From Amphiscolops sp. MND2022 (taxonomy: Eukaryota): a stretch of DNA of 64,000 nt. Below, in pieces: positions 19,301 through 43,382 of this stretch (its first letter is position 1; the number at the start of each line of letters is the position of its first letter). Below the pieces are notes generated by a model, which saw only the letters and a program-made list of their open reading frames with translations, was not told the origin of the DNA and did not search any database. Position numbers and translations under genes: made by a program. The stretch is taken from NCBI GenBank assembly GCA_964187785.1, contig OZ076409.1:32862001-32926000 (forward strand), read 5' to 3'.

Positions 19301-21857
19301 TTTTACTTAAGTTTTAACAATTTGATTTTTCTTCACATTCAAAAATTCAAGGCAAATGGTTTGACTAATATTCTCCTTTTAAGACAGTTGTTTTTGGCTG
19401 GTGGTTGGATGCAGGAATGGAGAGCAGTCAAGTCTTCGGATCACAATAAATCATAGTAGTTACCATTTCTCTCATTGAAAACCAAGGATGCATTTGTCGA
19501 GTTATAGCCCTCTCTGTAGTTTATGATATTCGTAAATTATATTAATTTGTTTAAAGATGATGATCAAATAGAATCAAAGATTAAAGTTCTGTCATCGAAC
19601 AACGAATTTCAAACTTTCGAAGCAAAACAAGAAAAGTTTGAAATTCAATTTGTGGAGTTTTTGTAACAATTACAGTTTTCGGTGAAAAAAGAAAATTTGC
19701 AATTGAGAAGGAGTTAACTAAGTTTCGAAGTGATTCGCAGTTGAGTTCAAAAAAGTAACATACGTCAGACAAAAGTTCATTTGAAATCGAAAACAACGAA
19801 CACTATAACATTTACTGCTTCAGAAATAAATCACACATCGAGTGTATTCGTCTTGGCATTTTGAAGTCGTTACGAAATTGAATACAGATATCGCAGCATC
19901 AAAAGTCGCCCGATTGGAGACTTTCACCAAAACCTTTCGTTGATTTCTATAATTTCCAGTTTCTGTTGTGCCGTGTTTGTTTCAGTTATTACAGCCTCGT
20001 GGATGTGGAGCTGGACGTGGATGATGTGACAGGAACACAGTGGGTTGTTGCTCGGGGGTCTCGTGTGACCTTTTTTAGACAAAAAGGATAGTTCTTCTCA
20101 GTATTGCATAGTGAGGATCGTTATCTTCCTGTCACCAAGTAATATTCCTCCTATTATGATGTTTCAAGAAAGTTTTCAGGCAAGCGGAAGTTGTCGTGAC
20201 TTCTGTTGAAATCCCAAGCTCGTTTTAAATGTTTGAAGTTACAAGGTATGCCAAAACAGGTTTTGGACTTTAAATTTACAAGGCCGTTAACTGTCCACAC
20301 TGGCGCCTCATTCCAGCCTAATGTACTTTTTACTGAATCAAAGGAAGTACTATTTATGGCATTTTTTGAAACAATTCCAGAACGAAATAGACGACATAGA
20401 GGCAGAGTACAATTGAAAAAATGCAATAATTTTTTTACTTAGGTTTTAACAATTTGATTTTTCTTCACATTCAAAAATTCAAGGCAAATGGTTTGACTAA
20501 TATTCTCCTTTTAAGACAGTTGTTTTTGGCTGGTGGTTGGATGCAGGAATGGAGAGCAGTCAAGTCTTCGGATCACAATAAATCAGAGTAGTTACCATTT
20601 CTCTCATTGAAAACCAAGGATGCATTTGTCGAGTTATAGCCCTCTCTGTAGTTTATGATATTCGTAAATTATATTAATTTGTTTAAAGATGATGATCAAA
20701 TAGAATCAAAGATTAAAGTTCTGTCATCGAACAACGAATTTCAAACTTTCGAAGCAAAACAAGAAAAGTTTGAAATTCAATTTGTGGAGTTTTTGTAACA
20801 ATTACAGTTTTCGGTGAAAAAAGAAAATTTGCAATTGAGAAGGAGTTAACTAAGTTTCGAAGTGATTCGCAGTTGAGTTCAAAAAAGTAACATACGTCAG
20901 ACAAAAGTTCATTTGAAATCGAAAACAACGAACACTATAACATTTACTGCTTCAGAAATAAATCACACATCGAGTGTATTCGTCTTGGCATTTTGAAGTC
21001 GTTATGAAATTGAATACAGATATCGCAGCATCAAAAGTCGCCCGATTGGAGACTTTCACCAAAACCTTTCGTTGATTTCTATAATTTCCAGTTTCTGTTG
21101 TGCCGTGTTTGTTTCAGTTATTACAGCCTCGTGGATGTGGAGCTGGACGTGGATGATGTGACAGGAACACAGTGGGTTGTTGCTCGGGGGTCTCGTGTGA
21201 CCTTTTTTAGACAAAAAGGATAGTTCTTCTCAGTATTGCATAGTGAGGATCGTTATCTTCCTGTCACCAAGTAATATTCCTCCTTTTATTGTTTCAAGAA
21301 AGTTTTCAGGCAAGCGGAAGTTGTCGTGACTTCTGTTGAAATCCCAAGCTCGTTTCAAATGTTTGAAGTTACAAGGTATGCCAAAACAGGTTTTGGACTT
21401 TAAATTTACAAGGCCGTTAACTGTCCACACTGGCGCCTCATTCCAGCCTAATGTACTTTTTACTGAATCAAAGGAAGTACTATTTATGGCATTTTTTGAA
21501 ACAATTCCAGAACGAAATAGACGACATAGAGGCAGAGTACAATTGAAAAAATGCAATAATTTTTTTACTTAGGTTTTAACAATTTGATTTTTCTTCACAT
21601 TCAAAAATTCAAGGCAAATGGTTTGACTAATATTCTCCTTTTAAGACAGTTGTTTTTGGCTGGTGGTTGGATGCAGGAATGGAGAGCAGTCAAGTCTTCG
21701 GATCACAATAAATCAGAGTAGTTACCATTTCTCTCATTGAAAACCAAGGATGCATTTGTCGAGTTATAGCCCTCTCTGTAGTTTATGATATTCGTAAATT
21801 ATATTAATTTGTTTAAAGATGATGATCAAATAGAATCAAAGATTAAAGTTCTGTCAT
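16307..21857 (+). repeat. Tandem array of five ~1.12-kb units
   Basis: Units start at 16307, 17353, 18475, 19597 and 20729 (GAACAACGAATTTC); near-identical ORFs recur in the ORF track. Confidence 0.97.
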
Positions 21858-22578
21858 AAGTGAAATATTTTAAGGTCAAATAATTAGGAGTTCCTTCAAT
21901 TAGTTCAAATGTCCTCAATATAGGAATGTTTCAGCTATTGCAGTTTGCTTGTTCTTTTGCTTCACGAACTTGCTGACAATCTCCCATGCATAGACAGGTT
22001 TTAGGTTATACTGATGATTTATTTTCCGAGATTTACAAGTTTTTCAATTTCACAGCGTCGACTAAAAAGTTAAAAGGGGAATAATCATTTGCTCCCATAT
22101 AGTTTTGTAATACACGTAAAATGATTAATTAAACAGACTCTTTGGACGCTCTAAAGGATTGAAACAAGAGCATAGAACGGCTACTGCTGATCGCTTTTCG
22201 CTACCTGAAGTGAAAACTGCCTCGCTATTTTTGCCTTTTGGACAGATAGTTTGTAACAAAAGTGAATTTCTATAATTATCCATATTTTACCATAAGAATC
22301 ACACGATGGACCACTTTGTAAAGTTGCACGTTTTGGATGCTAAATGACACCTGCTATTGAAAATAGCCTTTCCACTGCCGCATCACTTGCCCCAGAAGTT
22401 TTGTCAGTGCGCTCTGTGGCACACTTGACCAATATTGGCCTGCACAGAGCCGAAAAACCTGAAAGAGGATTTCTTTGCTACTTTCTAGCTTTGTAATGTG
22501 GTCCTAGTTACATTTTAGACTCGCTAGTAGTTTGTGTATATATATTCATTACAAATCGCAGGGGGGGGGGGGTTTGGC

Positions 22579-22678
22579 AAAAATTTCATTTCTACCAAAG
22601 ACTATGAGTCCCTCCCGGGACTCGAACCTCGCCAGTTGAAATGATGGGCCAGCGACCTAACCACTATGCCACGAAACC
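22579..22678 (-). ncRNA. tRNA-like Pol III cassette, left-arm copy
   Basis: On the - strand: A box TGGCATAGTGG, B box GGTTCGAGTCC and a downstream T5 run. Confidence 0.5.
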
Positions 22679-22734
22679 ATCTCAACCAGTATTTACAGGT
22701 TCTATATAAACCCAATAAATACCTAGTGAGCACA

Positions 22735-23065
22735 CCCCTCCTCCACACTCTACATGCAAAAATTGAAAAATTTTGAAAATCTTACAAAAACTCGGGAAAG
22801 TATCTGGAACAATCAGAAATGAAAAAAACCGCATCGTTGACATCAGAAAACAAAAAACGATAAAAAACTGTCAAAAATGTAACCCCCCCTTTACACTCTA
22901 CATGCAAAAAATTGAAATTTTTGAAAAACTCGGGAAAGGATCTGGAACAAACAAAAATGAAAAAAAAACGCATCGTTGACATCAGAAAACAAAAAAACGA
23001 TAAATGTCAAAAATGTGAACACAACCCCCCCTCCACAATCTACATGCAAAAAATCGAAAAATTTA
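22735..23065 (+). repeat. Subterminal ~140-150 bp direct repeats of the palindromic element
   Basis: TCTACATGCAAAAA recurs three times in the left arm; the right arm (38500-38695) has one unit fewer. Confidence 0.8.
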
Positions 23066-26000
23066 AAATTTTTCAAATAACCCAGAAATGGTGTGAAACA
23101 TTCAAAACTCTTGTTAGTTAAAAGCGTCTCAATCATCAATCATGAGGGCAAAAGGTCCCAGTAAACACTTCCTCAGGACATGTAAAATCTCAAAAACGAA
23201 CAAAAACAGAAAACGGAACTTGCTTCAACATGGAGTTTTGCAGCAAGATTTTGACCGTGGAAGACAACTAAAACCAAACTATTAGAAATGTTCTTTCTGT
23301 AAACCTCATTCCAACGGCAGTCATTCATGGGAAATGAGAAACCCAAATTCAAGAGTGCCCATGACTGACTTGTAAAGTCATTTAATTCCGCTGGTTGAAC
23401 AGCTATGAATTTAGGCCGCATTATGCTGTTTGATACGAAGCAAATTATTCATTTTACATAAATCCGTATAACTATAGTCATTGCTACCAGTGTTTATGCT
23501 AACCGAGGATAAACAGGACTATATACCAGCAAAGCCGGCAAAAGCAGGGCTCATGCTTACCAATTCCAATTGAGCATCATATCTGCTAATCAATGACAAA
23601 CATCGTACTTACACCTTCTGATCGTGATCATAAAAGTCTTAAAAATGTAAGATATTACTACGAAGCTCCTTTCAGCGAAGGGTTATTGAAATTTAGAAGC
23701 CAAGCATTTAACTTGTCTCGTTTTGGACTGTAAATGAGACATTATTGTGCCCATCAAGAAAAACTTTACCAGTCGGCTCTCTACCAGTAATATTCATCTC
23801 AATATCCAGGCGTTTAGTACTGCAGTTAATTTAAAAAATATATCAAAGAAATCCCTTGTGAAATCACCGATTTTTGGGTTTTCAAGAGAGACAATTTACG
23901 CTATCAAAACTTCTAAACCTTGTCTTTCTCATCTCAATGCTTGGGTATCTTTTGTCTCAAGTGTAACAGTCTGTAATCAATTGCAGGTCTAGTTTACATC
24001 CATTGCGCCAATTTTAGTACTGGATTTTTAAGCAAAAAATAAAACAGATAGTTAATTGCACTCGATCAAATCACAACCTGGTCATCTCAGGTAAATATAG
24101 CGAAGAGACTTCAAGTTACTTGTTTTCTGATCTTTGATACTTTCGATACTTTTCCAAAATCAAAACCTACATCTAGGGCTGTTCAGTCCCGCAGTTTCCG
24201 CCTAACTGGAGAATAAATTCCATATACCAATATATACTAGGTTTCATTGTGTTCAAGTATTTTAGTGATGGTCGAAAAATATGATAACTCCACCACTCCA
24301 ATTATATGCTTACCGATAATTCAAGCTGCTTTCAGAGAATAGAATAAATTGACATTTCGGAAACTTTCACAACAAAATGTCATGCAAACCGGGGTTTCCT
24401 TTCGATTACCTGCAAATTAGAATAGGTACTGCTTGAAAGTTGGAGAAAAGTCTACATATTGATAGAATTGCACGCCAGTGAGCTTTGTTTTTTGAAGGTT
24501 GCCTTGGATTGAAAAGAAAGGAAACCTTACGCTCATCTTCGTTTTCAATGGTACTTCTTGAATACATCCAACTGAGACACGGAGCTTTTATATAGACACG
24601 GAGCTCTGACCAAGAATTGAATGTTTCAGAATGCATCTACCTACGAATGAGGATTCTAAATAGTGTAAAGTCGTGACCAATCAAGAGTATGGTCTATATC
24701 GTCTCAAACATCATATCATTACCGCCCCAGCCTGACGGTAGATCAGCTGGATCTTTTCACTACTACATAGTCAAGTATCTCCCAATGTTTAGAGCTGTAT
24801 ATATTCAAAAAGTTCACAATGCCTAGAGCTGCATATTCATGCACTTCCCATTTTCCAGAGTGAACGTTTTCTGCTAAAATTGTCTCTTTCTTGATGCCGA
24901 GAATTACATGGAAGGTTTTGAATATTATACGTTGCTATTTTTTATAATTCATGCAATCTCAACATGAGACTGACAACATTTGTCAGTTATAAAAGCAACT
25001 TTAAAATGAGTCAGATTGAGTACGCAAAAGCTCCACTAAACCAGCTGACGCACGTTCAACAACTGTAATAAACACTTACACATACTGTGTCGGTACCGCT
25101 TTTGATCTTATCCAGCGTCGCACTCTGCAGAGTCTGTTTGCTCAATTATTTTCTAATTGCTTGACTGATGTTAAAAACAAATGCCACCCGGGACACGCTA
25201 TTGAAGCTACTGTTTAATGATTAATCACAAGTACAAAGGGCCGACGTCGCTTTCATGTTTACACAGCGTGTCGCTCTGTTTGATCAATCTGGAATTTGTA
25301 ACTACGGAGATCTATATGCCACTCGCGACACGCCTATTGAAGCTACTGTGTAATAAACAATCAAAAATACAAAGTTCTGGTGTCGCTTTCATGTTTACAC
25401 AGCGTGTCGCTTTATTTAATCAATATGAAATTGGCAACTACAGAGATCTATTGATCCAATATCAATCTTGCATCCGGTCTGCTCGACCAAAACAAAAACA
25501 ATCCATACTAAATTTTGTTTACGATGAACTAGCGAATGGAAATGATTCGAATTTTGAGGTCTCGATTCTGTTTCAATCATAAGTATCTTGTTTAAAAACA
25601 TTCATCAAATTTAGTGAATGAAAAAAGAATAGAAAGCCATTTCGGTGGTGTTAAAGTTTTGTGCCTGGTAAACATTGTTTTGTATGCAACAAGTTCTCTG
25701 TTGTGTCAAATGTGATTGAGATCCTCCCAATCCAGACGGCAGTACGGGGGAGAAGAAAATCAAAAAGAGGATTGCTCAAAGCTATACGGGGGCTGCTGAC
25801 GTCAAGAAGCAAAAACTGCTGATAAGAAGGAATGAAAAGTTGTACAACTCATTTCAAAAGTAATTGCAGCATACAAGTTTTGTTAATTTTCCTGTTTTCA
25901 TATCCATTAATCGTAGTTAAATAGGTTTTTTGAATGTTTTTGTTTCTATTTCATTTTTCGTGCATCGGTACATCCCATCTTCTCAATCGTTTTTGTTTGA

Positions 26001-29000
26001 TGTGAACTGTGCTACAATGCTTTCTTTTGTTTGCCCCTGATTTTGTCTTTTCTTCAATCTACCCTTTTTATCATTAGTTTTTTAATCATTTATTTCGTTT
26101 TTGTTTCAATTGCATACGCTCCTCTCCTCATTTACGCTCTATCCCATCTTATACTGTAACGTATCGATTTGAGTTTATTTTTGATGTGTGTTTTTTATTT
26201 TAAGTGTTGTTGTTCCCTTCCTGTGGTATCCGATCTTTTTTGCAATCTTCACCTCATACGTTTAAAATAATTACTTGATTTACCTTTTTAATGTGCTTTA
26301 TTCTATTTAATCCTGTCGTTGTTCCAACTCTGTACGTTAATGGAGTATTCAATATTTAGCTAATCCGCACTATTTCATTTGTAAGTGTGATGCTTTTGTT
26401 TAATCTTGAAGTCCAGTGAAGTAATATATACTCGATATATACATTTTTTCACCTCGTAGGTTTTTGAATTAGTTTCATCATCCCGAGTTTTTTTTTCGTT
26501 GTTGAGATAGTATTGGGTATTGAAAACACTTCGTGAAAAACTACCCAAAAACTTTTTCACACCATTTCATAGCAACCTTGATGAAATATCTTTTTCCGAG
26601 CGTTTTTGAGTAAAGGAATGTTTTCGGTGGCGTTTCTCAAGAATGTGCAAGCATCTTGAAACTCGAATTGTCTCATGCAACTGTAAACCCCGTGATCCAA
26701 GCAACTGTTTTTGGTTTTCTATAGTCAATGTTAAGTAATTGTATCAACTTTCATTTACAGTTTTTTTGTAGACGAAATATGGTGGAAGCAATGCATGAAC
26801 AGCATCCGGACTTTTTCAAACAACATCGGAAAAAATTTCGGTACCTGGTGTTGGAAAAGGAACCAAGGATTGGGCTTGATATGCCTTCAGGATCAAATTA
26901 CGCATTTGGAGTTCATTCTTTTACCTCTGATTATCTTTGCGGCTTTGAGAAACAACCACACTACCATGTTCTTTTTGAGTGCGATTCCAGTAATAGAAAA
27001 GGTTACAATGTACCGTGCCTCTATTGAACGTTCTGTCTACTGTTGGCGGATTGTTCGAGTCTCGTCATGCAAGGTGGAATTATGAATCGTCTGCAGGTTG
27101 CAATGAAGTACAACGTAAAAGAAAACAAAACCTTGCCAGCGCAGGGTCGACGCAAAGTTCCTGTTGTTCAAATCAGACGAGACAAAAGTGTTCAAACTGG
27201 TTTTTTACCGACTGCCACGTTTAGCCGATTTCAGCAGTTGATTCAAGGCCCATCAGCTGCAACTTTGTACAGAATCTTAGACATTCTCAATGACGGATAC
27301 GGAAGCATCGACACTACTAATTTGTATTTTTCGATTGACAATTCCAAAACTTTGTAAAGCTTGCACAGTTTATGAGGAATACAATGTGGCAAGAATATAA
27401 TCTTCAAACCAGTGTTTCCTAGTCAAGGAAAAGTCAGTGTTTCCTAGTTTAAGGATTAAAACTGAGCAGTCAGGTATAAATAAATTGGATCATTGTGTAC
27501 TGACAGGTTTGCACTATCAATAAATCATCGGAACGCTGGTCACGCTTAGTAGTAAAAATTGTTTACATGATGAAGTTGCGCCGTTAGATTCAAACGAATT
27601 GGATCATTGTGTAGTGGCATTTTAACGCTGTCATTAATTCATATGAATGTTGCGCATATTGACAGTGTGACGGAAGCTGTCAAAGCATGAAGAAGCAGGA
27701 GTATCAGATTCGCTACACTAGGAAACGAGAACTGGAATTTCATGCATGTAATTTGGTTCTGTACATGTACTGTCTAGCCAATGAGTCAGGTCAGATTTTG
27801 AGATATAGTACTCCAGGGTACAAGCGTGGTTTATTCAAGACTATATACTCAATGATTAAACTGCAACACATGCTTTGTTTGCCGTTGCAAAATTAATTCT
27901 TTTCAACTCCGTCAAGCAACTCGTTTCAACCAGTTCTTTCAAGACTCAAAACTTCACGGTAGAGCAAAAACTTTGATAGAATGTGCCCACTCAAACACAT
28001 TATACTTTGGTTGTTCCCAAATCCAAAGGCGTTTAGTGTTAACCCGAATTATTAACTCTCAAGCTCAGATATCAATCTAGAGAAATAGAAAACGACCAAA
28101 ATGTATATTCGTTTTTGAGTTTTGATTTTTGGTGAACAATTGGGCACATTCTTCAACTTGTCAGCAATTGACCTTCCATGAAACTACCAATGCAGACTTT
28201 CACTGGTGTGTCTGGTAACTCGCGGTTCACATTTTATGAAACTTGGTTCAATAAAACAATAGCAATAATTGAAGAAGCATGGTGGGAGGACGTCTGGTCG
28301 ATAAAAAGCTCAGTTTCAATCCCAAACGATTTGTTTATTCTGCTGCGAGTGGAATGTGTATCGGGAACTAATCCAAACAGCTTCAACCTAACGGACACTG
28401 TAGAAACGCCATTGACTACAACAAAAGTTTATGATCGTTTCTAATTGCCGTATGGTGTACGACAGCTTCTGTTTGACATTGACTGTCGAAATATACCCGT
28501 TTCAGAAAATCAGTTGGGTTGTATGACAGACTTGGAAAATTTAGAAAGTTACTGGGATATAAGAGGTACCCCTGAATCACCACAAGACGCTTCATGTTCT
28601 CTGTCGCCAAATATTGCCGACACAAACCAAGACCAAATTGCTTGTGACAGTCCAATCAAATCAGGAACTAGCCCAGTAAAGGAATGACCGCCAGCGCCAA
28701 AGAAGAATAGAGTTGAAAAATTCAAAAGGACAGCATTGGAAATAGCTAAGCTTGATCTCGCAGACGTTTGACAAACTTTCTTGATGTGATGTTTTATTAC
28801 TTGTTTGTTTGTATCATCGTTCAAATCATTGCTTCAACTTTGTCATTCAAGTCATTTTGTAATAAACTTTTCAGCCATTCTTTTCTACTGCCTAGCTTGA
28901 TCACCTCACAGGAGTAAACTTGTGCAGCTTTGAACCTTTGAATCGCTGAAGAAAATTGATATCGCAGCTTGTCTCAACAATCGGACAGTGGGTGAGAAAA

Positions 29001-29926
29001 AAAACAAAATAGCCAAACCTTGATGGTGAATAACCCTTTACTTATATTTACTCTTCTTGGTGAAGCCAACTCTTTTCAGAAAACGAAAAATGATAAAAAA
29101 ATCTTTTCAGAAAATTAACTTTTCAATGGTAATTTGAATTCAATCCCCTCTTAGACTTTTGTCTTTGAATACAAACTCCAATACGTAGCATTGATTGTTT
29201 CTCAAGGAATGATCGATGGTCTCAGTTAAAATCAAATGTTTCATTGCTCGCTTGACGCGGTAGCCAGATGGAATAATTTCCATCTGTCTCCTGAAAGTTT
29301 TTTCATCTTTGCTCCTGAGGTCTTTCAAGTAAACTGACAAGATGAAAGGACCTTTGAACTCCTTTTTGTTTGGATCCACCAATTCTACAGAGAGCGATAA
29401 GCTTTCTCCGGAACTTGTCTCCAGAATAAGTTCGACCGTTACCTCAATTTAGCCCACGTCTTCACACTGTAGGTGTGTTTTACTAAAGACACACAATTTA
29501 GGTTCTTGCTCACTGACGATAATAGCTGCGAAGGCCTTGAGGTGCTCGAACGCTTCCTTGTCAATTTTTATTATTGCCATGCATTCTCTAGTACAAGTAT
29601 TCGTCAATATGGGTGTGCGAAAACCCACAGTCGAGTCCGAAAAAAATCACATAAATTTGTGTGTACATCATCAGGCATTGTCTGAAGTAGAGCAGACTTT
29701 TTTAAAACTAATTTTCAAGGTCCATGTTTAATCTAGTTCTTTCAAACGTTTGGGTACGACAATCTATTTTCGTACTTTCGATATGAAACCTAACTAATGT
29801 TGATACCCATTTTCCAGTTTCACCGGTAAAACGATGTGACAATGTTTCTTGAAAAGACATCTTTCTAGGCATTCATTCTCACCAAACCATGTTTTATAAT
29901 TTTGACGTCTTTTTCAGAGTTTCTCT

Positions 29927-31106
29927 ATGAAAAGCAACGCTTCAACTTCAAATTTGCCAGAGCAGCGAAACACTGAGGACCACAAGAGTTTCAACCAAAA
30001 TGAAGAGCCAATTGCCAGTTTCAACAAATTGCGAGATGAGGTTCTTTGCTTGAAAACTCTACTCTCTGAATTGCGAGATGAGTTGTGGTCACTAGCGAAA
30101 AAATTCCCCTTACTCAATGTAAAAGTGTTCCAGTACATCCCCTCAATGCAACTTTTTACTGCACAAATGCGAGAAGAGGTATCTGAACTGAGGAATGAGA
30201 TGATTGAGATGAAAAGCGAAAACATTGTCCATGAAACAAGGAATACCTCTGGCTCTACATAAACTCTCGAGGTGTCGAGTAGAAGGATTGGAATAAAAGT
30301 AAACCTCAGCCTAAACTATTCAATGCAGCAAGAAGCAGTGGCGAAATCAAGGAAAACGCAGCAAGCGGTAGCGAAATCAAGGAAAGCAGCTCCGTTAAAC
30401 CTGTGGAAAGAGAAAGTCTAAACGAAGATGTCATAAAGCGTCAAAACAAATTGATTGAAAGTTACTCAAAAAAACATTGTTCCACTTGAACAATTTTCTC
30501 GCCATTTGCTCGAGCGTATAAAAAGTCTGGAATGTGGCCGTAATGGGTCAGTTGTTTGGAAACTCAGTGGCTTCAACCATATTTTCGAGGCGGCGAAAAG
30601 AGCTGAAGTCAAATCAAAAAATGAAAAAGTGCCAACAGATTTTAGTAGTCCAATAATTCTCACAGGTTCTCCCGCATACTCTTTGTATGTGAGACTATTT
30701 CCATTTGGATGCGAGGTGGCAGCTGGCAATCACGTTTCTATTTTTGTTGCCCTAATTCCCGGAATGTATGATGCCATTCTCAAATGGCCATTCAAGTCTA
30801 CAATCAAAATCAGCGTCATTAGTCAACATGATCCTGCTGATAGATCAATAGACGCGATCAATAGTTCCTAGTGAAAAAACTGGGAGCTGCTTCAAGCGTC
30901 CGTCTTCTTGTAAAGGAAACATGTCGGTTGGTATACTGCATTTCCTACCACACAGGTGAGACAACATTAAACAAAATTCGTTGTGAGTAAGTTTGAATAA
31001 AATTGTGATCAATTTTTTTCCAAGCTTGTTACATGGATGCAGCAGAGATCATGGATACCTAAAGGAGGATTCAATGTTCATCGAAGTTCCCTTTTCTGCT
31101 GAATGA
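29927..31106 (+). pseudogene. TRAF-like gene (coiled coil + MATH domain), disrupted, with an intron at 30956-31024
   Basis: VVWKLSGF, SSPIILTG..YSLYVRLFP.G, GNHVSIF..L.PG.YDAILKWPF, CFKRP....N...G...F and GYLKEDSMFIEV are TRAF-MATH hallmarks; frameshift near 30850 and stops upstream. Confidence 0.85.
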
Positions 31107-33865
31107 AGTATTTATTTTGTGAACAAAAATGTCAAGTTCGTTTTGTTTTATAATCCTAAATTTAAATATCAAACTGAACTTTCAACCTAGTTTTCATGAG
31201 CTGCTATAGACGATATGAATGCAAACGTTGACTGATTATACTCAATTATCAGAAAAGTTTCATCAGTGTATATCTTAAAATTTTCCCGATTCAGACTTCT
31301 TTAACTTCAATCGGTAACCTGAGAGCTAAAATTTACAATATCAGTCGTTAGCGGTACGTTATTAAATGATAACATCAGAGAGAGACCTTTTCAAACAAAA
31401 CGGATATCACCTCGTTTATCATTAAACTGGAAAATGGGTATCAAAATTAGTTCGATTCAATATCGAAAGTACGAATATAGATTGTCGTACCCAAACGTTT
31501 GAAAGAACTAGATTAAACATGGACCTTGAAAATTAGTTTTAAAAAAAGTCTGCTCTACTTCAGACAATGCCTGATGGTGTACACACAAATTTATGTGATT
31601 TTCTCTCGGACTCGACTGTGGGTTTTCGCACACCCATATTGACGAACACTACTAAAAAATGCATGGCAATAATAAAAATTGACAAGGAAGCGTTCGAGCA
31701 CCTCAAGGCCTTCGCAGCTTTTATCGTCAGTGAGCAAGAACCTAAATTGTGTCTTTAGTAAAACACACCTACAGTGTGAAGACGTGGGCTAAATTGAGGT
31801 AACGGACGAACTTATTCTGGAGACAAGTTTCGGAGAAAGCTTATCGGTCTCTGTAGAATTGGTGGATCCAAACAAAAAGGAGTTCAAAGGTCATTTCATC
31901 TTGTCAGTTTACTTGAAAGACGTCAGGAGCAAAGATGAAAAAACTTTCAGGAGACAGATGGAAATTATTCCATCTGGCTACCGCGTCAAGCGAGCAATGA
32001 AACATTCAATTCTTACTGAGACCATCGATCATTTCTTGAGAAACAATCAATGCTACGTATTGGAGTTTGTATTCAACGACAGAAGTCTAAGAAAGGATTG
32101 ACTTCAAATTACCATTGAAAAGAAAAGTTAATTTTCTAAAAAGATTTTTTTTATCATTTTTCGTTTTCTGAAAAGAGTTGGCTTCACCTAGAAGAGTAAA
32201 TAGAAGTGAAGGGTTATTCACCATCAAGGTTTGGCTATTTTGTTTTTTTTCTCACCCACTGTCCGATTGTTGAGACAAGCTGTGATATCAATTTTCTTTA
32301 GCGATTCAAAGGCTCAAAGCCGCACAAGTTTACTCTTGTGAGGTGATCAAGCTAGGCAGTGGAAAAGAATGGCTGAAAAGTTTATTACAAAATGACTTGA
32401 ATGACAAAGTTGAAGCAATGATTTGAACGATGATACAAACAAGTTATAAAACATCACATCAAGAAAGTTTGTCAAACGTCTGCGAGATCAAGCTTAGCTA
32501 TTTCCAATGCTGTCCTTTTGAATTTTTCAACTCTATTCTTCTTTGGCGCTGGCGGGCATTCCTTTACTGGGCTAGTTCCTGATTTGATTGGACTGTCACA
32601 AGCAATTTGCTCTTGGTTTGTGTCGGCAATATTTGGCGACAGAGAACATGAAGCGTCTTGTGGTGGTGATTCAGGGGTACCTCATATCCCAGTAACTTTC
32701 TAAATTTTCCAAGTCTGTCATACAACCCAACTGATTTTCTGAAACAGGTATATTTCGACAGTCAATGTCAAACAGAAGCTGTCGTACACCATACGGCAAT
32801 TCGAAACGATCATAAACTATTGTTGTAGTGAATGGCGTTTCTACAGTGTCCGTTAGGTTGAAGCTGTTTGGATTAGTTCCCGATACACATTCCACTCGCA
32901 GCAGAATAAACAAGTCTTTTGGGATTGAAACTGAGCTTTTTATCGACCAGACGTCCTCCCACCATGTTTCTTCAATTATTGCTAGTTTTGTTGAACCAAG
33001 TTTCATAAAATGTGAACCGCGAGTTACCAGACACACCAGTGAAAGTCTGCATTGGTAGTTTCATGGAAGCTCAATTGCTGACAAGTTGAAGAATGTGCCC
33101 AATTGTTCACCAAAGATCAGAACTCAAAAACGAATATACATTTCGGTCGTTTTCTATTTCTCCTCTAGATTGATATCTGAGCTTGAGAGTTAATAATTCT
33201 GCTTAACACTAAACGCTTTTGGATTTGGGAACAACCAAAGTATAATGTGTTTGAGTGGGCACATTCTATCAAAGTTTTTGCTCTACGGGTTGCTTGACGG
33301 AGTTGGAAAGGAATAATTTTGCAACGGCAAACAAAGCATGTGTTGCAGTTTAATCATTGAGTATATAGTCTTGAATAAACCACGCTTGTACCCTGGAGTA
33401 CTATATCTCAAAATCTGACATGACTCATTGGCTAGACAGTACATGTACAGAACCAATTTACATGCAAGAAATTCCAGTTCTCGTTTCCTATTGTCGCGAA
33501 TCTGATACTCCTGCTTTTTCATGCTTTGACAGCTTCCGTCCCACTGTCACAACATGCGCAACATTCATATGAATTAATGACCGTTGAAATGCCACTACAC
33601 AATGATCCAATTCGTTTGAATCTAACGGCGCAATTTCATCATGTAAACAAATTTTACTACTAAGCGTGACCAGCGTTCCGATGATTTATTGATAGTGCAA
33701 ACCTGTCAGTACACAATGATCCAATTTATTCATACCTGATTGCTCAATTTTAATCCTTAAAAAAAAACAATTTTCGCTGTCAAGCACTGGCTGACGTTGA
33801 CAAGGAAACACTGGTTTGAAGATTATATTCATGCCACATTGTATTCCTCATAAACTATGCAAGCT

Positions 33866-34441
33866 TTACAAAGTTTTGGAATTGTCAATCGAAAAATACA
33901 AATTAGGAGTGTCGATGCTTCCGTATCCGTCATTGAGAATGTCTAAGATTCTGTACAAAGTTGCAGCTGATGGGCCTTGAATCAACTGCTGAAATCGGCT
34001 AAACGTGGCAGTTGGTAAAAAACCAGTTTGAACACTTTTGTCTCGTCTGATTTGAACAACAGGAACTTCGCGTCGACCCTGCGCTAGCAAGGTTTCGTTT
34101 TCTTTTACGCTGTACTTCATTGCAACCTGCAGACGATTCAGAATTTCACCTTGCATGACGAGACTCGAACAATCCGCCAACAGTAGACAGAACGTTGAAT
34201 AGAGGCACGGTACATTGTAACCTTTTCTATTACTGGAACCGCACTCAAAAAGAACATGGTAGTGTGGTTGTTTCTCAAAGCCGCAAAGATAATCAGAGGT
34301 AAAAGAATGAACTCCAAATGCGTAATTTGATCCTGAAGGAATATCGAGCCCAATCCTTGGTTCCTTTTCCAACACCAGGTACCGAACATTTTTCCGATGT
34401 TTAAAAAAGTTCGGATGCTGTTCATGCATTGCTTCCACCAT
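33866..34441 (-). CDS. Hypothetical protein with HUH-like motif
   Basis: 191-aa ORF containing YAFGVH...KQPHYHVLF; the left-arm copy (~26779-27357, +) has TCA>TGA at 27025. Confidence 0.55.
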   Translation of the reverse strand: MVEAMHEQHPNFFKHRKNVRYLVLEKEPRIGLDIPSGSNYAFGVHSFTSDYLCGFEKQPHYHVLFECGSSNRKGYNVPCLYSTFCLLLADCSSLVMQGEILNRLQVAMKYSVKENETLLAQGRREVPVVQIRRDKSVQTGFLPTATFSRFQQLIQGPSAATLYRILDILNDGYGSIDTPNLYFSIDNSKTL

Positions 34442-35365
34442 ATTTCGTCTACAAAATAAACTGTAAATGAAAGTTGATACAATTACTTAACATTGACTAT
34501 AGAAAAACCAAAACAGTTGCTTGGATCACGGGGTTTACAGTTGCATGAGACAATTCGAGTTCCAAGATGCTTGCACATTCTTGGGAAACGCCACCGAAAC
34601 ATTCCTTTACTCAAAAACGTTCGGAAAAGGAAGTTTCTTCAAGGTTGCTATAAAATATAAAGGTGTGAAAAAGTTTTTGGGTAGTTTTGCACGAAGTGTT
34701 TTCAATACCCAATACTATCTCAACAACGAAAAAAAAACTCGGGATGATGAAACTAATTCAAAAACCTACGAGGTGAAAAAATGTATATATCGAGTATATA
34801 TTACTTCACTGGACTTTAAGATCAAACAAAAGCATCACACTTACAAATGAAATAGTGCGGATTAGCTAAATATTGAATACTCCATTAACGTACAGAGTTG
34901 GAACAACGACAGGATTAAATAGAATGAAGCACATTAAAAAGGTAAATCAAGTAATTATTTTAAACGTATAAGAGGTGAAGATTGCAAAAAAGATCGGATA
35001 CCACAGGAAGGGAACAACAACACTTAAAATAAAAAAAACACACATCAAAAATAAACTCAAATCGATACGTTACAGTATAAGATGGGATAGAGCGTAAATG
35101 AGGAGAGGAGCGTATGCAATGGAAACAAAAACGAAATAAATTATTAAAAAACTAATGATAGAAAGGGTAGATTGAAGAAAAGACAAAATCAGGGGCAAAC
35201 AAAAGAAAGCATTATATCACAGTTCACATCAAACAAAAACGATTGAGAAAATGGGATGTATCGATGCACGAAAAATGAAATAGAAACAAAAACATTCAAA
35301 AAACCTATTCAACTACGATTAATGGATATGAACTCAGGAACACTAACAAAACTTGTATGCTGCAA

Positions 35366-35731
35366 TTACTTTTGAAATGAGTTGTACAACTTTTCATTCC
35401 TTCTTACCAGCAGTTTTTGCTTCTTGACGTCAGCAGCCCCCGTATAGCTTTGAGCAATCCTCTTATTGGGATTGGGAGGACCCATGCTAATGTTTTCTAC
35501 ATTCGCTATCATTTCCTGAAACTCCTTGACAGTGAGACCCACTCTCTGTTGCAAGCGAAAGTCATCTTGATCCTCTTTTTTCTTGAACAACTTGATGTAG
35601 ATGTATGTAAGACCACTGTCTTTATATGTGTTTGTGGTCACGCGGACAAGTCGTTTATCAGATGATGCCACGTCAATATGGGCATCTCCAAACTCGAGAT
35701 CTTTTGAGGCTGTGAGAGAGCTGAAAGTCAT
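35366..35731 (-). CDS. PC4-like ssDNA-binding protein
   Basis: RLVRVT.NTY..SG.TYIYIKLF.......QQRVGLT..EFQEM...V.NI follows the PC4 strand-strand-helix pattern; most of it is absent from the left arm (~25720). Confidence 0.55.
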   Translation of the reverse strand: MTFSSLTASKDLEFGDAHIDVASSDKRLVRVTTNTYKDSGLTYIYIKLFKKKEDQDDFRLQQRVGLTVKEFQEMIANVENISMGPPNPNKRIAQSYTGAADVKKQKLLVRRNEKLYNSFQK

Positions 35732-38700
35732 CGCTGATTTCTGCTACATTTTGACTGGTGATTATGCTGTTCTACCGGTGATCTCAAGACAAATGTCTGA
35801 AAAAAATTAACTGACAAAAAACTTGAAGTAAACTGAAGCTCAATGACATTTGACACACCAGAGAACTTGTTGCATACAAAACAATGTTTACCAGGCACAA
35901 AACTTTACCACCGAAATGGCTTGCTATTCTTTTTTCATTCACTAAATTTGATGAATGTTTTGAAACAAGATACTAATGATTGAAACAGAATCGAGACCTC
36001 AAAATTCGAATCATTTCCATTCGCTAGTTCATCGTAAACAAAATTTAGTATGGGTTTTTGTTTTGGTCGAGCAGACCGGATGCAAGATTGATATTGGATC
36101 AATAGATCTCTGTAGTTGCCAATTCCATATTGATTAAATAAATCGACACGCTGTGTAAACATGAAAGCGACACCAGAACTTTGTATTTTTTGATTGTTTA
36201 TTACAGTAGCTTCAATAGGCGTGTCCGCGAGTGGCATATAGATCTCCGTAGTTACAAATTCCAGATTGATCAAACAGAGCGACACGCTGTGTAAACATGA
36301 AAGCGACGTCGGCCCTTTGTACTTGTGATTATTCATTAAACAGTAGCTTCAATAGCGTGTCCCGGGTGGCATTTGTTTTTAACATCAGTCAAACAATTAG
36401 AAAATAATTAAGCAAACAGACTCTGCAGAGTGCGACGCTGGATAAGATCAAAAGCGGTACCGACACAGTATGTGTAAATGTTTATTACAGCTGTTGAACG
36501 TACGTCAGCTGGTTTAGTCGAGCTTTTGCGTACTCAATCTGACTCATTTTAAAGTTGCTTTTATAACTGACAAATGTTGTCAGCCTCATGTTGTTGAGAT
36601 TGCATGAATTATGAAAATAGCAACGTATAATATTCAAAACCTTCCATGTAATTCTCGGCATCAAGAAAGAGACAATTTTAGCAGAAAACGTTCACTCTGG
36701 AAAATGGGAAGTGCATGAATATGCAGCTCTAGGCATTGTGAACTTTTTGAAAATATACAGCTCTAAACATTGGGAGATACTTGACTATGTAGTAGTGAAA
36801 AGATCCAGCTGATCTACCGTCAGGCTGGGGCGGTTATGATATGATGTTTGAGACGATATAGACCATACTCTTGATTGGTCACAACTTCACACTATTTAGA
36901 ATCCTCATTCGTAGGTAGATGCATTCTGAAACATTCAATTCTTGGTCAGAGCTCCGTGTCTATATAAAAGCTCCGTGTCTCAGTTGGAGGTATTCAAGAA
37001 GTACCATTGAAAACGAAGATGAGCGTAAGGTTTCCTTTCTGTTCAATCCAAGGCAACCTTCAAAAAACAAAGCTCACTGGCGTGCAATTCTATCAATATG
37101 TAGACTTTTCTCCAACCTTTCAAGCAGTACCTATTCTAATTTGCAGGTAATCGAAAGGAAACCCCGGATTGCATGACATTTTGTTGTAAAAGTTTCCGAA
37201 ATGTCAATTTATTCTATTCTCTGGAAGCAGCTTGAATTATCGGTAAGCATATAATTGGAGTGGTGGAGTTATCATCTTTTTCGACCATCACTAAAATACT
37301 TGAACACAATGAAACCTAGTATCTATTGGTATATGGAATTTATTCTCCAGTTAGGCGGAAACAATGCGGGACTGAACAGCCCTAGATGTAGGTTTTGATT
37401 GTGAAAAAGTATCGAAAGTATCAAAGATCAGAAAACAAGTAACTTGAAGTCTCTTCGCTAGATTTACCTGAGATGACCAGGTTGTGATTTGATCGGGTGG
37501 AATTAACTATCTGTTTTACTTTTTGCTTAAAAATCCAGTACTAAAATTGGCGCAATGGATGTAAACTAGACCTGCAATTGATTACAGACTGTTACACTTG
37601 AGACAAAAGATACCCAAGAATTGAGATGAGAAAGACAAGGTTTAGAAGTTTTGATAGCGTAAATTATTTCTCTTGAAAACCCAAAAATCGGTGATTTCAC
37701 AAGGGATATCTTTCATATTTTTAAATTAACTGCAGTACTAAACGCCTGGATATTGAGATGAATATTACTGGTAGAGAGCCGACTGGTAAAGTTTTTCTTG
37801 ATGGGCACAATAATGTCTCATTTACAGTCTAAAACGAGACAAGTTAAATGCTTGGCTTCTAAATTTCAATAACCCTTCGCTGAAAGGAGCTTCTTACATT
37901 AGTAATATCTTACATTTTTAAGACTTTTATGATCACGATCAGAAGGTGTAAGTACGATGTTTGTCATTGATTAGCAGATATGATGCTCAATTGGAATTGG
38001 TAAGCACGAGCCTTGCTTTTGCCGGCTTTGCTGGTATATAGTCCTGTGTATCCTCGGTTAGCATAAACACTGGTAGCAATGACTATAGTTATACGGATTT
38101 CTGTAAAATGAATTAATTTGCTTCGTATCAAACCGCATAATGCGGCCTAGAATCCATTCATAGCTGTTCAACCAGTGGAATTAAATGACTTTACAAGTCA
38201 GTCATGGGCACTCTTGAATTTGGGTTTCTCATTTCCCATGAATGACTGCCGTTGGAATGAGGTTTACAGAAAGAACATTTCTAATAGTTTGGTTTTAGTT
38301 GTCTTCCACGGTCAAAATCTTGCTGCAAAACTCCATGTTGAAGCAAGTTCCGTTTTCTGTTTTTGTTCGTTTTTGAGATTTTACATGTCCTGAGGAAGTG
38401 TTTACTGGGACCTTTTGCCCTCATGATAGATGATTGAGACGCTTTTAACTAACAAGATTTTTGAATGTTTCACACCATTTCTGGGTTATTTGAAAAATTT
38501 TAAATTTTTCGATTTTTTGCATGTAGATTGTGGAGGGGGGGTTGTGTTCACATTTTTGACATTTATCGTTTTCTTTTGTTTTCTGATGTCAACGATGCGT
38601 TTTTTTTTCATTTTTGTTTGTTCCAGATCCTTTCCCGAGTTTTTGTAAGATTTTCAAAAATTTTCAATTTTTGCATGTAGAGTGTGGAGGGGGGGATGCT

Positions 38701-38750
38701 CACTGGGTATTTATTGGGTTTATATAGAATCTGTATATGCTGGTTGAGAT

Positions 38751-38849
38751 GGTTTCGTGGCATAGTGGTTAGGTCGCTGGCCCATTATTTCAACCGGAGA
38801 GGTTCGAGTCCTGGGAGGGCTCATAGTCTTTGGTAGAAATGAAATTTTT
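38751..38849 (+). ncRNA. tRNA-like Pol III cassette, right-arm copy
   Basis: A box 38758-38768, B box 38801-38811, TTTATATA about 30 nt upstream, TTTTT at 38845-38849; acceptor stem pairs poorly. Confidence 0.5.
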
Positions 38850-39933
38850 GCCAACCCACCCCCTGCGATTAGTAATGAATATATATACACAAACTACTCT
38901 CGCTTCATGACGATATGAAACCACTGACAAAGTTAAACAAATTGAACGAAGAAGGACCATTCAGTGTGAACAAAAATTGCATCTAGAGCCGACAAAGAGC
39001 GCCAACTAAAAACAAGTGCTAAGGTACTTAGTGCAAGGCTCGCGAACTGGGCAAAATACAACAGAATTTTTCTTCAGATCAAAAACTCAGTGAATGGTCA
39101 ACTATTCAACAGATTTTTGGCTCAATATTTAAAGAGCATACAAATATGGGCAAAAATTTGCTTGAGTGTTTCGGTACCGTGAAATTTTCGAATAGTAAAA
39201 ACTGTCTCTGAAAGGTCCCCTCTGTCGTCTCAAGATTTTTCGGTTTTTGAGCATCAAGGGGAGAGACAACTTTAAACATTCCCTTCTTTTCAAAGCTACC
39301 AATACAAAATAAAAGTAGATCATTTTTGGTATTTAACTGAGTTGAATGAAATGTGATTATATTAAAGCTATATATTTGGAGTGAAAGGGATGTTACAAAA
39401 CTTCAAAACAAAAATTTCTACGTGGAGAGCAGTTTGCTATTCGTTCTCACCGGGAGTAGACACTGATTTGCTTTTCCAGCCAATGATCTCGCAGCCCTTC
39501 AAATTCTTCGTCGTCATCCCCAAAACCCATGGCCCGCATGGTTGAATGGGAAAACTGTCTCCCCACCCTTTTCATTTCGTTCGCTGCACTCTATTATTTC
39601 ATATCACATACCTGAATTGACAGTTGCACCAATCAGTTCTGCATTGGCACCATAACTCATGCAGTCAGTTTATATTTGAAAATATATATTCCATCAGTTT
39701 TATTTACACCAAAATCATGAATCATAACACTGTGATTTAAACCTTAAATTGCTAGTTAATCAGCAAATTCTACGAAAACAAAGCAGCAGCCATTATTTAA
39801 CTCATTCGAAATAGAAGCACCGACTTCAAACGATTAAAAAATTTCATGAGAAATAGAAAACTAGATACAAACCCTTGGATCTACTTGATCGATTGGAGAT
39901 TTATTTACAGAGGCTGAATGAATTGAACACTTT

Positions 39934-40878
39934 TCATAGACCCTTATTATAATGAACATGAGTTAGAAAAGGTTGGTCAGTCCTGATTTTGGATTGCAAA
40001 CTGCTTTCAAGTCTGTCTATTTTGATGGTTGAGTGCTGGGGGAAAAGAGCAACAGCCACGGGGAGTACAAAGTAAGTACATATACCGATGAGAGATGCTT
40101 CCAAGAAGATGCTGAGTGAGCGGTCTAAAACTTTCTCCAAAACTAGGCCACGTTTGGAAAACTGTTTTTGAATTGCGCTCATTGCAAGTGTGGGAAAGAC
40201 CATAATCGGAATAGCGGCAGAAATTCTAGTAGCAACAACTTGCATCAAACACATACAACCCAAAAGTCTCGACTCTCCCAAGATTTTCCCACCAGTATCG
40301 TTCACTGTAATTCCTTTCAAAAGATCCTGCTGTCTCATGAGAGGCACATTTACGATGTTACCAGCGCATACTGCGAAGAATGGAACAAATTTAGAAGCAA
40401 GAGGATAACTAGATCGCTTAGCGATTTGTGACAACTTGTAAGACACCGCCACGGCTGTCCCTGTAGCACTCAAATAGGCAGTTATTATTTGCCCGGTCGT
40501 GAGAGAAGATTGTGCATTCCTATTGGTGTAGTTGCAAAAAGCCATGAAGGACTGATTGATCCACTGAGTTGTCACAAGTTGGAGAGGCGTTCGGTAAAAA
40601 GTTAGCATAAGAGCAGTTACTATAGTATTCCCGGGTATTTGGAAGCTCATTCTTCCAACAATGGGGTTCATTTCCTTAGTGTCAGGGTGAAAAGCTGACG
40701 CATACAAAGTTCTCGCCCAATGCAGATCACTATGATGAACCGTTTGAGGATTTTTCGCGAAATCCTCTAGAATATCTCTAGCGAAATGTAATTCTTGTTT
40801 CGATTTGAGCAGCCACACCGGACTCAGTACACCTTTGAAATATTTATATCGTTCGAAGAAAGAATCGCTTGAAGACAT
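39934..40878 (-). CDS. SFXN: Sideroflexin (mitochondrial inner-membrane carrier), intronless
   Basis: SAFHPDT, GRMSFQIPG, QWINQSF, NYTNRNA, PFFAV...N..NVPLMRQ and the terminal YNKGL are family signatures; intact 314-aa ORF. Confidence 0.95.
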   Translation of the reverse strand: MSSSDSFFERYKYFKGVLSPVWLLKSKQELHFARDILEDFAKNPQTVHHSDLHWARTLYASAFHPDTKEMNPIVGRMSFQIPGNTIVTALMLTFYRTPLQLVTTQWINQSFMAFCNYTNRNAQSSLTTGQIITAYLSATGTAVAVSYKLSQIAKRSSYPLASKFVPFFAVCAGNIVNVPLMRQQDLLKGITVNDTGGKILGESRLLGCMCLMQVVATRISAAIPIMVFPTLAMSAIQKQFSKRGLVLEKVLDRSLSIFLEASLIGICTYFVLPVAVALFPQHSTIKIDRLESSLQSKIRTDQPFLTHVHYNKGL

Positions 40879-41002
40879 CAGAGATCATTAGTTGAGAAGC
40901 ACCATTAACTCTAGAATTTGTTGCAAAATAAGAAAACAGTCGCATATATATATTTCTATTCATTTTTTCTTTTTCTTTATCAGATATCATGGATCTTCGT
41001 CA

Positions 41003-41830: not shown

Positions 41831-41889
41831 ATTTAGAGCCTCTACAACAGCACGTTTTGGATGCTAAATGACACCTGCTATTGAAAATA

Positions 41890-43382
41890 GCTTTCGACTG
41901 CCGCATCACTTGCCCTAGAAGTTTTGTTAGTGCGTTCTGTGGCACACTTGACCAACATTGGCCTGCTTATGAGAGCCTGGCTGCATTAGACGAAGTGGCG
42001 TGAACAGTCTGCTCAAAAAGTGGACTATTCAGTGTGAGATCTGTGTTGGGAGCAGGACGTTTCGGCAAAAAAAAATTTCGAGACGTTTCGGCAAATTTTT
42101 CATGCCGAAACGTCCCGTATTATCTTGGTCCCGTAATATCTTGGTTTTGCTTTTGGTTTTCTACAAACTGGTTGGGTCCAGTTTGTAGAATACCAGTTTG
42201 TAGAATTCTTTAATTGAAGAAAAACGATAAGACCAATAATGTAGGAATGATGGAAAGCATAAAACGTGCCTCGGATATGTCCCCATTTCCTCTAGTGCCC
42301 CGCGGCCCCTTGGGGCAGCTTATATTCCCATCTTGTTAAGCGAGGTCGAACAGGAGCAAAGACCTAGCGGGAACGGAGATCGCGAAGCTTTCGACTGCCG
42401 CATCACTTGCCCTAGAAGTTTTGTTAGTGCGTTCTGTGGCACACTTGACCAACATTGGCCTGCTTATGAGAGCCTGGCTGCATTAGACGAAGTGGCGTGA
42501 ACAGTCTGCTCAAAAAGTGGACTATTCAGTGTGAGATCTGTGTTGGGAGCAGGACGTTTCGGCAAAAAAAAATTTCGAGACGTTTCGGCAAATTTTTCAT
42601 GCCGAAACGTCCCGTATTATCTTGGTCCCGTAATATCTTGGTTTTGCTTTTGGTTTTCTACAAACTGGTTGGGTCCAGTTTGTAGAATACCAGTTTGTAG
42701 AATTCTTTAATTGAAGAAAAACGATAAGACCAATAATGTAGGAATGATGGAAAGCATAAAACGTGCCTCGGATATGTCCCCATTTCCTCTAGTGCCCCGC
42801 GGCCCCTTGGGGCAGCTTATATTCCCATCTTGTTAAGCGAGGTCGAACAGGAGCAAAGACCTAGCGGGAACGGAGATCGCGAAGCTTTCGACTGCCGCAT
42901 CACTTGCCCTAGAAGTTTTGTTAGTGCGTTCTGTGGCACACTTGACCAACATTGGCCTGCTTATGAGAGCCTGGCTGCATTAGACGAAGTGGCGTGAACA
43001 GTCTGCTCAAAAAGTGGACTATTCAGTGTGAGATCTGTGTTGGGAGCAGGACGTTTCGGCAAAAAAAAATTTCGAGACGTTTCGGCAAATTTTTCATGCC
43101 GAAACGTCCCGTATTATCTTGGTCCCGTAATATCTTGGTTTTGCTTTTGGTTTTCTACAAACTGGTTGGGTCCAGTTTGTAGAATACCAGTTTGTAGAAT
43201 TCTGGAATTGAAGAAAAACGATAAGACCAATAATGTAGGAATGATGGAAAGCATAAAACGTGCCTCGGATATGTCCCCATTTCCTCTAGTGCCCCGCGGC
43301 CCCTTGGGGCAGCTTATATTCCCATCTTGTTAAGCGAGGTCGAACAGGAGCAAAGACCTAGCGGGAACGGAGATCGCGAAGC
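41890..43382 (+). repeat. Three tandem 497-bp units
   Basis: Units start at about 41890, 42387 and 42884; an identical ORF appears at 42000, 42497 and 42994. Confidence 0.95.

Follow-up and report, generated by a model that had tools for sequence, protein, structure and literature searches.

The nearest described systems to the element treated here, a 16,373-bp near-palindrome within 64,000 nucleotides of the Amphiscolops sp. MND2022 genome (contig OZ076409.1, positions 32,862,001 to 32,926,000; this whole stretch is the window, in which positions below are counted unless a contig or locus is named), are the autonomous Polinton/Maverick elements of the adintovirus type (PMC8097293, PMC8502044). 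Mavericks have a constrained size of about 17 kb, with terminal inverted repeats (TIRs) measuring 46-1,447 bp and an (AGT)2 motif at the ends that serves protein priming, and the end motif and jumping-back of Polintons have been described (PMC8097293). The window element resembles them in its (AGT)2//(ACT)2 ends, a 6-bp target site duplication (TSD), a length of about 17 kb and intronless genes, and it shares its first 183 bp with a co-resident Polinton family. Unlike them, it has no genes for PolB, integrase, ATPase, protease or capsid. Its inverted repeats measure 7.3-7.5 kb, against 100-152 bp in its own helper and 46-1,447 bp in 134 intact vertebrate Mavericks, so that the arms are five times the longest of those TIRs, 1,447 bp (PMC8097293). 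Because PolB, integrase and capsid are missing the element is not an autonomous Polinton; nor is it a copy-back or a transpoviron. It is a non-autonomous element or viral satellite, and we put at roughly 0.85 the probability that it is a helper-dependent satellite of one Polinton/Maverick family.

Other known systems share some of these properties. Non-autonomous TIR transposons, such as miniature inverted-repeat transposable elements (MITEs), foldback elements and Pack-MULEs, are likewise moved in trans through shared ends (PMC6431247). Unlike MITE-type elements, the satellite is 16-18 kb long, is 90% palindrome and carries its own genes under purifying selection; its interior does not come from a helper coding region and its ends have been exchanged with helper variants. 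Transpovirons are, like it, linear double-stranded DNAs with terminal inverted repeats that have no capsid and depend on a DNA virus, but they are about 7 kb long, carry a gene for a superfamily 1 (SF1) helicase, travel with mimiviruses and end in sequences of their own (PMC5499653), whereas the satellite has no helicase, bears its helper's ends, is palindromic and resides in host chromosomes. Teratorn is also virus-derived, with long inverted repeats around a unique region, but is an autonomous piggyBac-herpesvirus fusion of 41-182 kb (PMC6431247). Engineered helper-dependent adenovirus vectors that form tail-to-tail dimers are symmetric, have the helper's origin end at both termini and are replicated and packaged in trans (PMC2518115). 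These vectors are laboratory constructs, whereas the satellite is a natural, integrating and evolving lineage for which packaging can only be surmised. Engineered genomes of this kind, in which both termini are adenovirus left ends, have reportedly also been described by Steinwaerder in 1999 and by Parks and Graham in 1997. In the parts of the full-text literature covered, a scope that leaves aside subscription papers, Repbase and supplements, we found no description of palindromic or gene-bearing Polinton satellites. Non-autonomous Polintons are mentioned in subscription papers and in Repbase, and Kapitonov and Jurka are said to have treated them in 2006.

The main parts of the element and its target site are as follows.

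22526..38898, whole palindromic element, 16,373 bp, AGTAGT at 22526 and ACTACT at 38898
22520..22525, plus strand, left TSD copy CTCGCT, 6 bp
38899..38904, plus strand, right TSD copy CTCGCT, 6 bp
22526..29820, plus strand, left arm, 7,295 bp (self-BLAST)
31424..38898, minus strand, right arm, 7,475 bp, inverted copy of the left arm (self-BLAST)
29821..31423, no strand, unique centre, 1,603 bp
22526..22708, plus strand, helper-like terminal segment, 183 bp, with (AGT)2, a G-run and a tRNA-like unit
38721..38898, minus strand, right-hand copy of the helper-like terminal segment
43578..43690, plus strand, uninterrupted paralogue of the target site, outside the element

The original prediction, made from the letters of the window, had described these ends and the exact TSD, inverted arms of about 7.4 kb around a centre of about 1.6 kb, and an intact paralogous target. 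The ends and flanks, read directly, and the self-BLAST alignment agree with it. The two arms make up 90% of the element. They align in three blocks at 89.3% (the terminal 0.4 kb), 96.6% and 94.5% identity and differ by substitutions at 2.66% of 6,830 aligned sites, as well as by indels; the left arm lacks about 370 bp that the right arm has (gap at 25720-25761). The paralogous target exists: the left flank is 96.4% identical to 43578-43660, where the match continues into right-flank sequence with a single CTCGCT. The target of the element sits within a host repeat.

Copy family and co-resident Polintons

Genome-wide searches were made in the 1.07-Gb eukaryotic assembly that holds the window; the type of Polinton and its cargo would fit an animal host. 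With the terminal 200 bp as query there were 389 candidates, 40 of them scored. For the centre, 40 of 84 candidates yielded 46 matches, and 37 of these 46 listed matches cover at least 1.1 kb of it at 82-95% identity (100% for the centre itself). A search with a marker protein of the family, in which 150 matches were scored among 540 candidates, reached 80 loci: 50 hold a convergent plus/minus pair of marker genes, 30 have the gene on one strand only and none has a divergent pair alone. The paired genes lie 2.5 to 17 kb apart (median 7.1 kb). Seventeen other copies were retrieved, seven as paired ends, eight via the centre and two via one end. Inverted arms of at least 5 kb are present in 13 of them; among the other four, one has an arm partly deleted, one reaches a contig end and two are without most of the second arm. 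All 14 other copies that have both ends carry a 6-bp TSD, exact in 13, and all the TSDs are different.

Two objections that the original prediction had raised against itself can be set aside. Since this is a multi-copy family of 80 marker loci with independent 6-bp TSDs, a single post-insertion inverted duplication of an ordinary Polinton end is excluded. A fold-back artefact of assembly is ruled out by the 2.66% arm divergence, by the indels and by the 14 other copies with TSDs of their own. Arm divergence is 0.5-4.3% in 11 other copies, and with 2.66% the window copy is therefore among the older insertions. Satellite lengths fall within 15.9-18.3 kb in 16 of 19 cases, with a median of 16,848 bp. 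In a 25.7-kb copy (C3:58225333-58251017), a 4.3-kb part of the right arm occurs three times in tandem. There is also a diverged subfamily, about 72% identical to the marker protein, with convergent gene pairs (C1:45081764-45088519, C4:8291094-8296585).

Full-length Polintons were found at loci whose match to the element is limited to its first 165-183 bp; we retrieved four of them, with 89.6-91.5% identity between their left ends and the element over this segment.

C8:45174421-45192077, helper Polinton
C11:56367845-56385611, helper Polinton
C10:60687192-60705529, helper Polinton
C13:30181689-30202110, helper Polinton

TIRs of 100-152 bp were seen in the three of the four helpers that have both ends in view. 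One helper has Pfam matches to rve (6e-12), Pox_A32 (4e-5) and Peptidase_C5 (0.006, a weak adenain match); in another, a frame of 1,412 amino acids (aa) is 40% identical over 795 aa to the Pfam-confirmed PolB of the window. A helper protein is 38% identical to a frame of the window's own Polinton, a frame which, from gene order and recall, we take to be the major capsid protein. The helpers hold a full core gene set plus accessory genes of their own. Helper-type elements measure 16.4-18.5 kb in 13 of 15 cases (median 17,669 bp); four helpers with this kind of terminus and one relative were retrieved in full, and classification of the rest relied on 1.3 kb at their ends. The proposal that the element is a satellite moved in trans by an autonomous Polinton is thus borne out by a multi-copy family with its own TSDs and by helpers that share its first 183 bp. 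Most likely, the satellite family spreads as a parasite of the co-resident Polinton.

Two terminal variants were identified, each of them on both helpers and palindromic copies. The variant of the window copy has 21 exact matches, which lead to three satellites and eight helper-type elements. The second is an 18-bp variant; in the 30 of its 73 matches that were examined, 14 lead to a satellite, seven to helper left ends and nine to neither, seven of these nine forming the other end of an element whose left end is of helper type. Across the 62 bases compared, a helper end and a satellite end do not differ. Among the copies, terminal type does not track interior relatedness. Copies C2 and C1a are 0.6-1.2% apart inside, yet their first 60 bases differ, and C6x has the same terminal type as C2 though inside it differs by at least 17% from all other copies. 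Three satellite copies have ends of another kind, similar to the right end of a related C7 Polinton. Helper right ends also show 64-83% resemblance to the subterminal repeats and, in other copies, to arrays of repeats of about 84 bp, which suggests that the outer arm descends from a Polinton right end, the tip having then been repeatedly replaced by helper left-end sequence.

The original prediction had left room for a second genome segment. In such a case the element would belong to a Polinton-like virus with a bipartite genome and would be required by the helper, or benefit it, for example by supplying proteins for single-strand binding or immune evasion. The matched ends and lengths, the common terminal variants and a conserved gene set that includes a candidate TRAF decoy would all fit such a segment. 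The helpers, however, already have the core gene set and accessory genes of their own, helpers and satellites insert independently, and some satellite subfamilies have other terminal types, including the helper right-end type. We regard a second segment as very improbable.

Some features of Polintons in this genome are recorded here in their own right. A Polinton from a different family occupies window 1-11391 (left end at L086:7548; about 13.8 kb, TSD ACTGTC, TIR about 120 bp), with rve integrase and PolB by Pfam and with frames read as capsid and protease genes; its PolB and capsid frames are split. As a helper it was rejected, having a different terminus and no DNA in common with the element, and the other PolB loci first sampled were likewise rejected, except one on C7. 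At C7:36.313-36.346 Mb lies a tandem pair of Polinton units whose common genes are 63-72% identical (L103, L104, L106-L108); the second unit has the TSD CTCATC, and its right end resembles the ends of three satellite copies. Among the cargo genes of the helper family are one resembling ribosomal protein S5 (Pfam 1e-7) and one for an EGF-like protein (4e-5), at L125:6467-7039 and L104:6136-6411.

An independent set of interior genes

The family conserves six small genes, the majority of which are broken in the window copy.

35366..35749, minus strand, 127-aa protein gene, an open 121-aa frame behind an early stop
33866..34441, minus strand, 191-aa protein gene with predicted HUH/Rep fold, right arm, open
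26779..27357, plus strand, left-arm copy of the 191-aa gene, one internal stop
27687..27896, plus strand, 69-aa conserved protein gene, mirror copy 33283-33522 (minus), open in both arms
28178..28768, plus strand, 197-aa conserved protein gene with stops, mirror copy 32475-33064 frameshifted
29209..29637, minus strand, part of a conserved protein gene of about 189 aa, broken, mirror copy 31543-32061
29927..30956, plus strand, central intronless TRAF-like gene, with stops and a frameshift in the window copy

In the window copy, open frames remain for the 191-aa gene in the right arm, the 69-aa gene in both arms and most of the 127-aa gene in the right arm, and the rest carry stops, frameshifts or a deletion; the left-arm 127-aa gene is mostly deleted, leaving a remnant at 25723-25815. 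The gene of about 189 aa points outward from the inner arm end. Median ratios of nonsynonymous to synonymous substitution (dN/dS) for the six genes, in pairs with dS above 0.15, are 0.31, 0.27, 0.33, 0.32, 0.38 and 0.43. They come from unbroken frames with coverage of at least 75% (23/48, 28/35, 19/66, 23/24, 7/55 and 3/98 matches), with five pairs for the TRAF gene and two for the 189-aa gene. The interior is shown to be an independent gene set under purifying selection.

The absence of PolB, integrase, ATPase and capsid genes from the element, which the original prediction had noted, was confirmed: the listed blastn and tblastn matches to PolB-bearing loci include no such similarity inside the element, and tblastx of the interiors of the window copy and copy L040 against 13 helper-side loci gave nothing at E<=0.01. 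No long open reading frame (ORF) such as a protein-primed PolB was found within the element, no ORF above 327 aa recurs (at least three members) in eight copies, and the longest family frame is 364 aa. Homology to the helpers is confined to the terminal 183 bp, the subterminal repeats and the 84-bp arrays. A snap-back of the helper genome, one of the forms originally suggested, is thus unlikely, since the arm interior has no similarity to helper genes and the likeness ends at base 183. The palindromes are a separate satellite lineage and not a plain copy-back of the helper, because the interior is unrelated to it.

These results also bear on whether the family is an ordinary non-autonomous derivative, a giant MITE or copy-back, of one end of an extinct or unsampled Polinton that had these genes in its accessory region, the genes being passengers and the element never encapsidated. 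The resemblance of the subterminal repeats and 84-bp arrays to helper right ends at 64-83% would be expected of such a derivative, and a parent with these genes could have been missed, since the PolB search of the genome scored 91 of 1,907 candidates. Against this stand the lack of tblastx similarity between the interior and the 13 helper-side loci and the marker genes, all 150 matches of which are more than 15 kb away from each of the 74 listed PolB places (a small part of the PolB candidates). In addition, dN/dS is about 0.3 between subfamilies that are all palindromic, and therefore selection acted within the satellite lineage. We consider an ordinary derivative unlikely and retain a helper-dependent satellite as the preferred reading.

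On the family ORFs, MATH alone exceeded a curated Pfam cut-off. It belongs to the TRAF-like protein, which is 343-344 aa long from the first Met in three other copies and has a coiled coil followed by a C-terminal TRAF/MATH domain (PF21355, E 2e-19). Its sequence matches include TRAF5 (5.9e-16) and residues 78-348 of TRAF3 (1.1e-11), and no RING or zinc-finger Pfam match was found in its 364-aa frame. RING-less TRAFs can behave as dominant negatives. The top atlas matches of the 127-aa protein are PC4 clusters at 0.85-0.87, below the 0.9 mark; searches of Pfam for PC4, of PHROGs and of the PDB gave no match, and there is no similarity between it and a PC4-like frame of the helper. That it is PC4-like is a lead only. 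The 69-, 189- and 197-aa proteins had no family match in the searches made. An ORF of 121-133 aa at 25217-25582/35935-36336 was rejected as a gene, being full length in only two of 53 matches.

The 191-aa protein has 37 close relatives, and a profile search found 149 clusters at 50% identity. Ten HUH-fold clusters that were looked up (of P0039-P0179) are from ENA, Logan and JGI sources and are unnamed or hypothetical; no confirmed locus of the family in other organisms emerged among the metagenome and viral contigs searched. A structure model built on a 74-sequence alignment reached a mean confidence (pLDDT) of 89, whereas one from 14 sequences, at 43, was unusable. In a comparison of this model with 48,161 chains, 14 of the top 15 were HUH Rep or origin-binding domains (Z 3.5-4.8), and Foldseek ranked NS1/Rep and RepB first, with weak best E values of 0.005-0.012; a PDB sequence search with the alignment gave nothing significant. 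In the model, residues 15-113 with their HxH strand would resemble nanovirus M-Rep (6h8o), circovirus Rep (7kii), pMV158 RepB (3dkx), SV40 T antigen (1tbd) and papillomavirus E1 (1ksy). Unlike these domains, the 191-aa protein shows 8-15% identity at Z of at most 4.8, has the extra conserved residues His45, Cys53 and Cys79 and a separate small C-terminal domain, and lacks a helicase domain and a conserved catalytic Tyr. In the HxH motif H60 is kept in 71/73 and H62 in 69/73 sequences, and position 61 is Tyr, Phe or Trp in 69/74; His45, Cys53, His60, His62 and Cys79 are kept in 93-97% of rows. None of the 43 alignment columns inspected holds a conserved catalytic Tyr, the best candidates being Y81 (46/74), Y110 (52/74, with Phe or Leu common) and Y173 (35/51); position 84 is Phe in 54 and Tyr in 17. 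We read the protein as one that binds metal and DNA and probably does not nick.

The HUH-like fold and the conserved HxH could point to a HUH element that replicates itself, by a rolling hairpin or in the manner of Helitrons and Replitrons, and uses Polinton ends for integration only. Such an element is hardly credible, and the least probable explanation that we weighed: there is no conserved Tyr nucleophile at Y81, Y110 or position 84, no SF1 or other helicase gene was found among the family ORFs, and the ends and TSD are Polinton-type. The original description of the element as carrying only accessory genes is to be taken with caution: the gene with the predicted HUH/Rep-type fold may act on the element's own DNA.

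Arm homogenisation and a possible mode of spread

In three regions of the arms, the nearest relative of an arm is the other arm of the same copy in 10/12, 6/9 and 10/12 copies, while subfamilies differ by up to 18%. Copy C1a (L038/L039, C1:48420530-48437224) is chimeric: its outer 2 kb are 0-0.4% apart and much of its inner arms 2-11%, and the inner arms come from different subfamilies. Judging from this chimeric copy, a single template does not serve for both arms in each cycle. This speaks against an obligate hairpin, and correction now and then within a panhandle fits better.

Adenovirus genomes replicate through panhandles. For the satellite we propose that the helper's protein-primed PolB would start at either of the identical ends and copy by strand displacement. 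The displaced strand would fold on its 7-kb arms into a long panhandle, restoring a double-stranded origin and allowing one arm to correct the other, and the product would be inserted by the helper's integrase. Recombination in the shared terminal segment would keep the satellite origin matched to the active helper variant. Doubling about 9 kb of unique sequence to about 17 kb may bring the satellite to the helper's length for packaging, the HUH-fold protein may bind ends or single strands and tilt replication or packaging towards the satellite, and the RING-less TRAF may damp host immune signalling; taken jointly, we give these three steps about even odds. Packaging is suggested by the closeness of satellite length (median 16,848) to that of the helper (median 17,669). 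We hold it at about even odds because the length sample is partly biased, several copies having been chosen as paired ends 12-26 kb apart, and because marker spacings of 2.5-17 kb mean that shorter copies exist, which may have been deleted after insertion or may be mobile at that size.

Besides these two points on length, several others weigh against a helper-dependent satellite that spreads in this way. The dN/dS pairs are non-independent, include overlapping loci and come from unbroken frames only. The HUH fold has modest Z-scores (none of at least 5) and the Foldseek values given above, and the PC4 call stays under the 0.9 mark. Panhandle repair that starts from the ends would leave a polar gradient in arm correction. 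Three copies show one clearly, but the set as a whole does not: divergence is greater in inner than in outer arm in 7/11 copies (p = 0.21), so that no significant general outside-in gradient was found. Only four helpers and one relative were seen whole, the others being classed by their 1.3-kb ends.

A more far-reaching version, to which we give a little less than an even chance, is a natural lineage of satellite viruses of animal polintoviruses. These would be capsid-less hyperparasites in which about 9 kb, doubled into a palindrome of about 17 kb, fits the helper capsid, which repeatedly re-capture the current helper origin through recombination and whose HUH-fold proteins, a new metal-binding family, redirect helper replication or packaging. 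If true, the satellite would be indirect proof that these Polintons form virions, with an arms race at the termini. Animal Polinton particles have not been observed, according to the part of PMC8097293 drawn on here. The virions and the replication mode of animal Polintons are still open questions, and an element that matches its helper in ends and length, but not in genes, is a natural reporter: it marks the cis signals (about 185 bp) and hints at a length constraint, its record of arm-to-arm correction bears on the strand-displacement/panhandle model, and the shared terminal variants are a readable record of helper-satellite co-evolution. The HUH-fold family could also serve as a marker for such elements in genomes where PolB or integrase screens would miss them.

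Repeats, tRNA-like units and neighbouring sequences

Further repeats and tRNA-like units of the satellites and helpers are listed below.

22606..22677, minus strand, degenerate, outward-pointing tRNA-like unit with the A-box and B-box motifs of Pol III
22727..23107, plus strand, subterminal repeats, 69-78% like the right end of the related Polinton at C7:36.346 Mb
25181..25451, plus strand, 136-bp tandem repeat, two copies, mirror copy 36102-36372
L040:1750-2430 and equivalents, L104:1770-3790 and L108:10-580, arrays of repeats of about 84 bp, apparently non-coding
L124:222-399, L125:7600-7878, L129:7730-8012 and L104:5920-6100, tRNA-like units at helper ends

The unit at 22606-22677 was called by ARAGORN at a relaxed threshold only. 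Since this call and the A and B boxes are all that support a tRNA gene at the element ends, we reject that reading; ARAGORN at default settings and Rfam found none there, and folding is weak (z -0.72). Helper ends also have outward-pointing tRNA-like units with Pol III box motifs, the left differing from the right, and these are possibly promoters, insulators or small-RNA genes. The 84-bp arrays are common to many satellite copies and helper right ends and absent from the window copy. Reading them as zinc-finger or leucine-rich repeat genes is unsupported, since stops recur and frames shift.

In the surroundings of the element, a tandem array of units of about 1.12 kb, 98-99% identical, lies directly to its left (window 16441-21857), and a 78-79% relative lies beside the window's own Polinton (window 11392-11912). 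A frame at window 46637-47251 (plus strand) may be a fragment of a retrotransposon integrase. A 497-bp unit is repeated three times in tandem at 99% identity at window 41889-43382. An intronless sideroflexin frame at window 39934-40884 (minus strand), 1 kb from the element, covers nearly the whole Pfam model (5.7e-92) and by its sequence would be either a host gene or a retrocopy.

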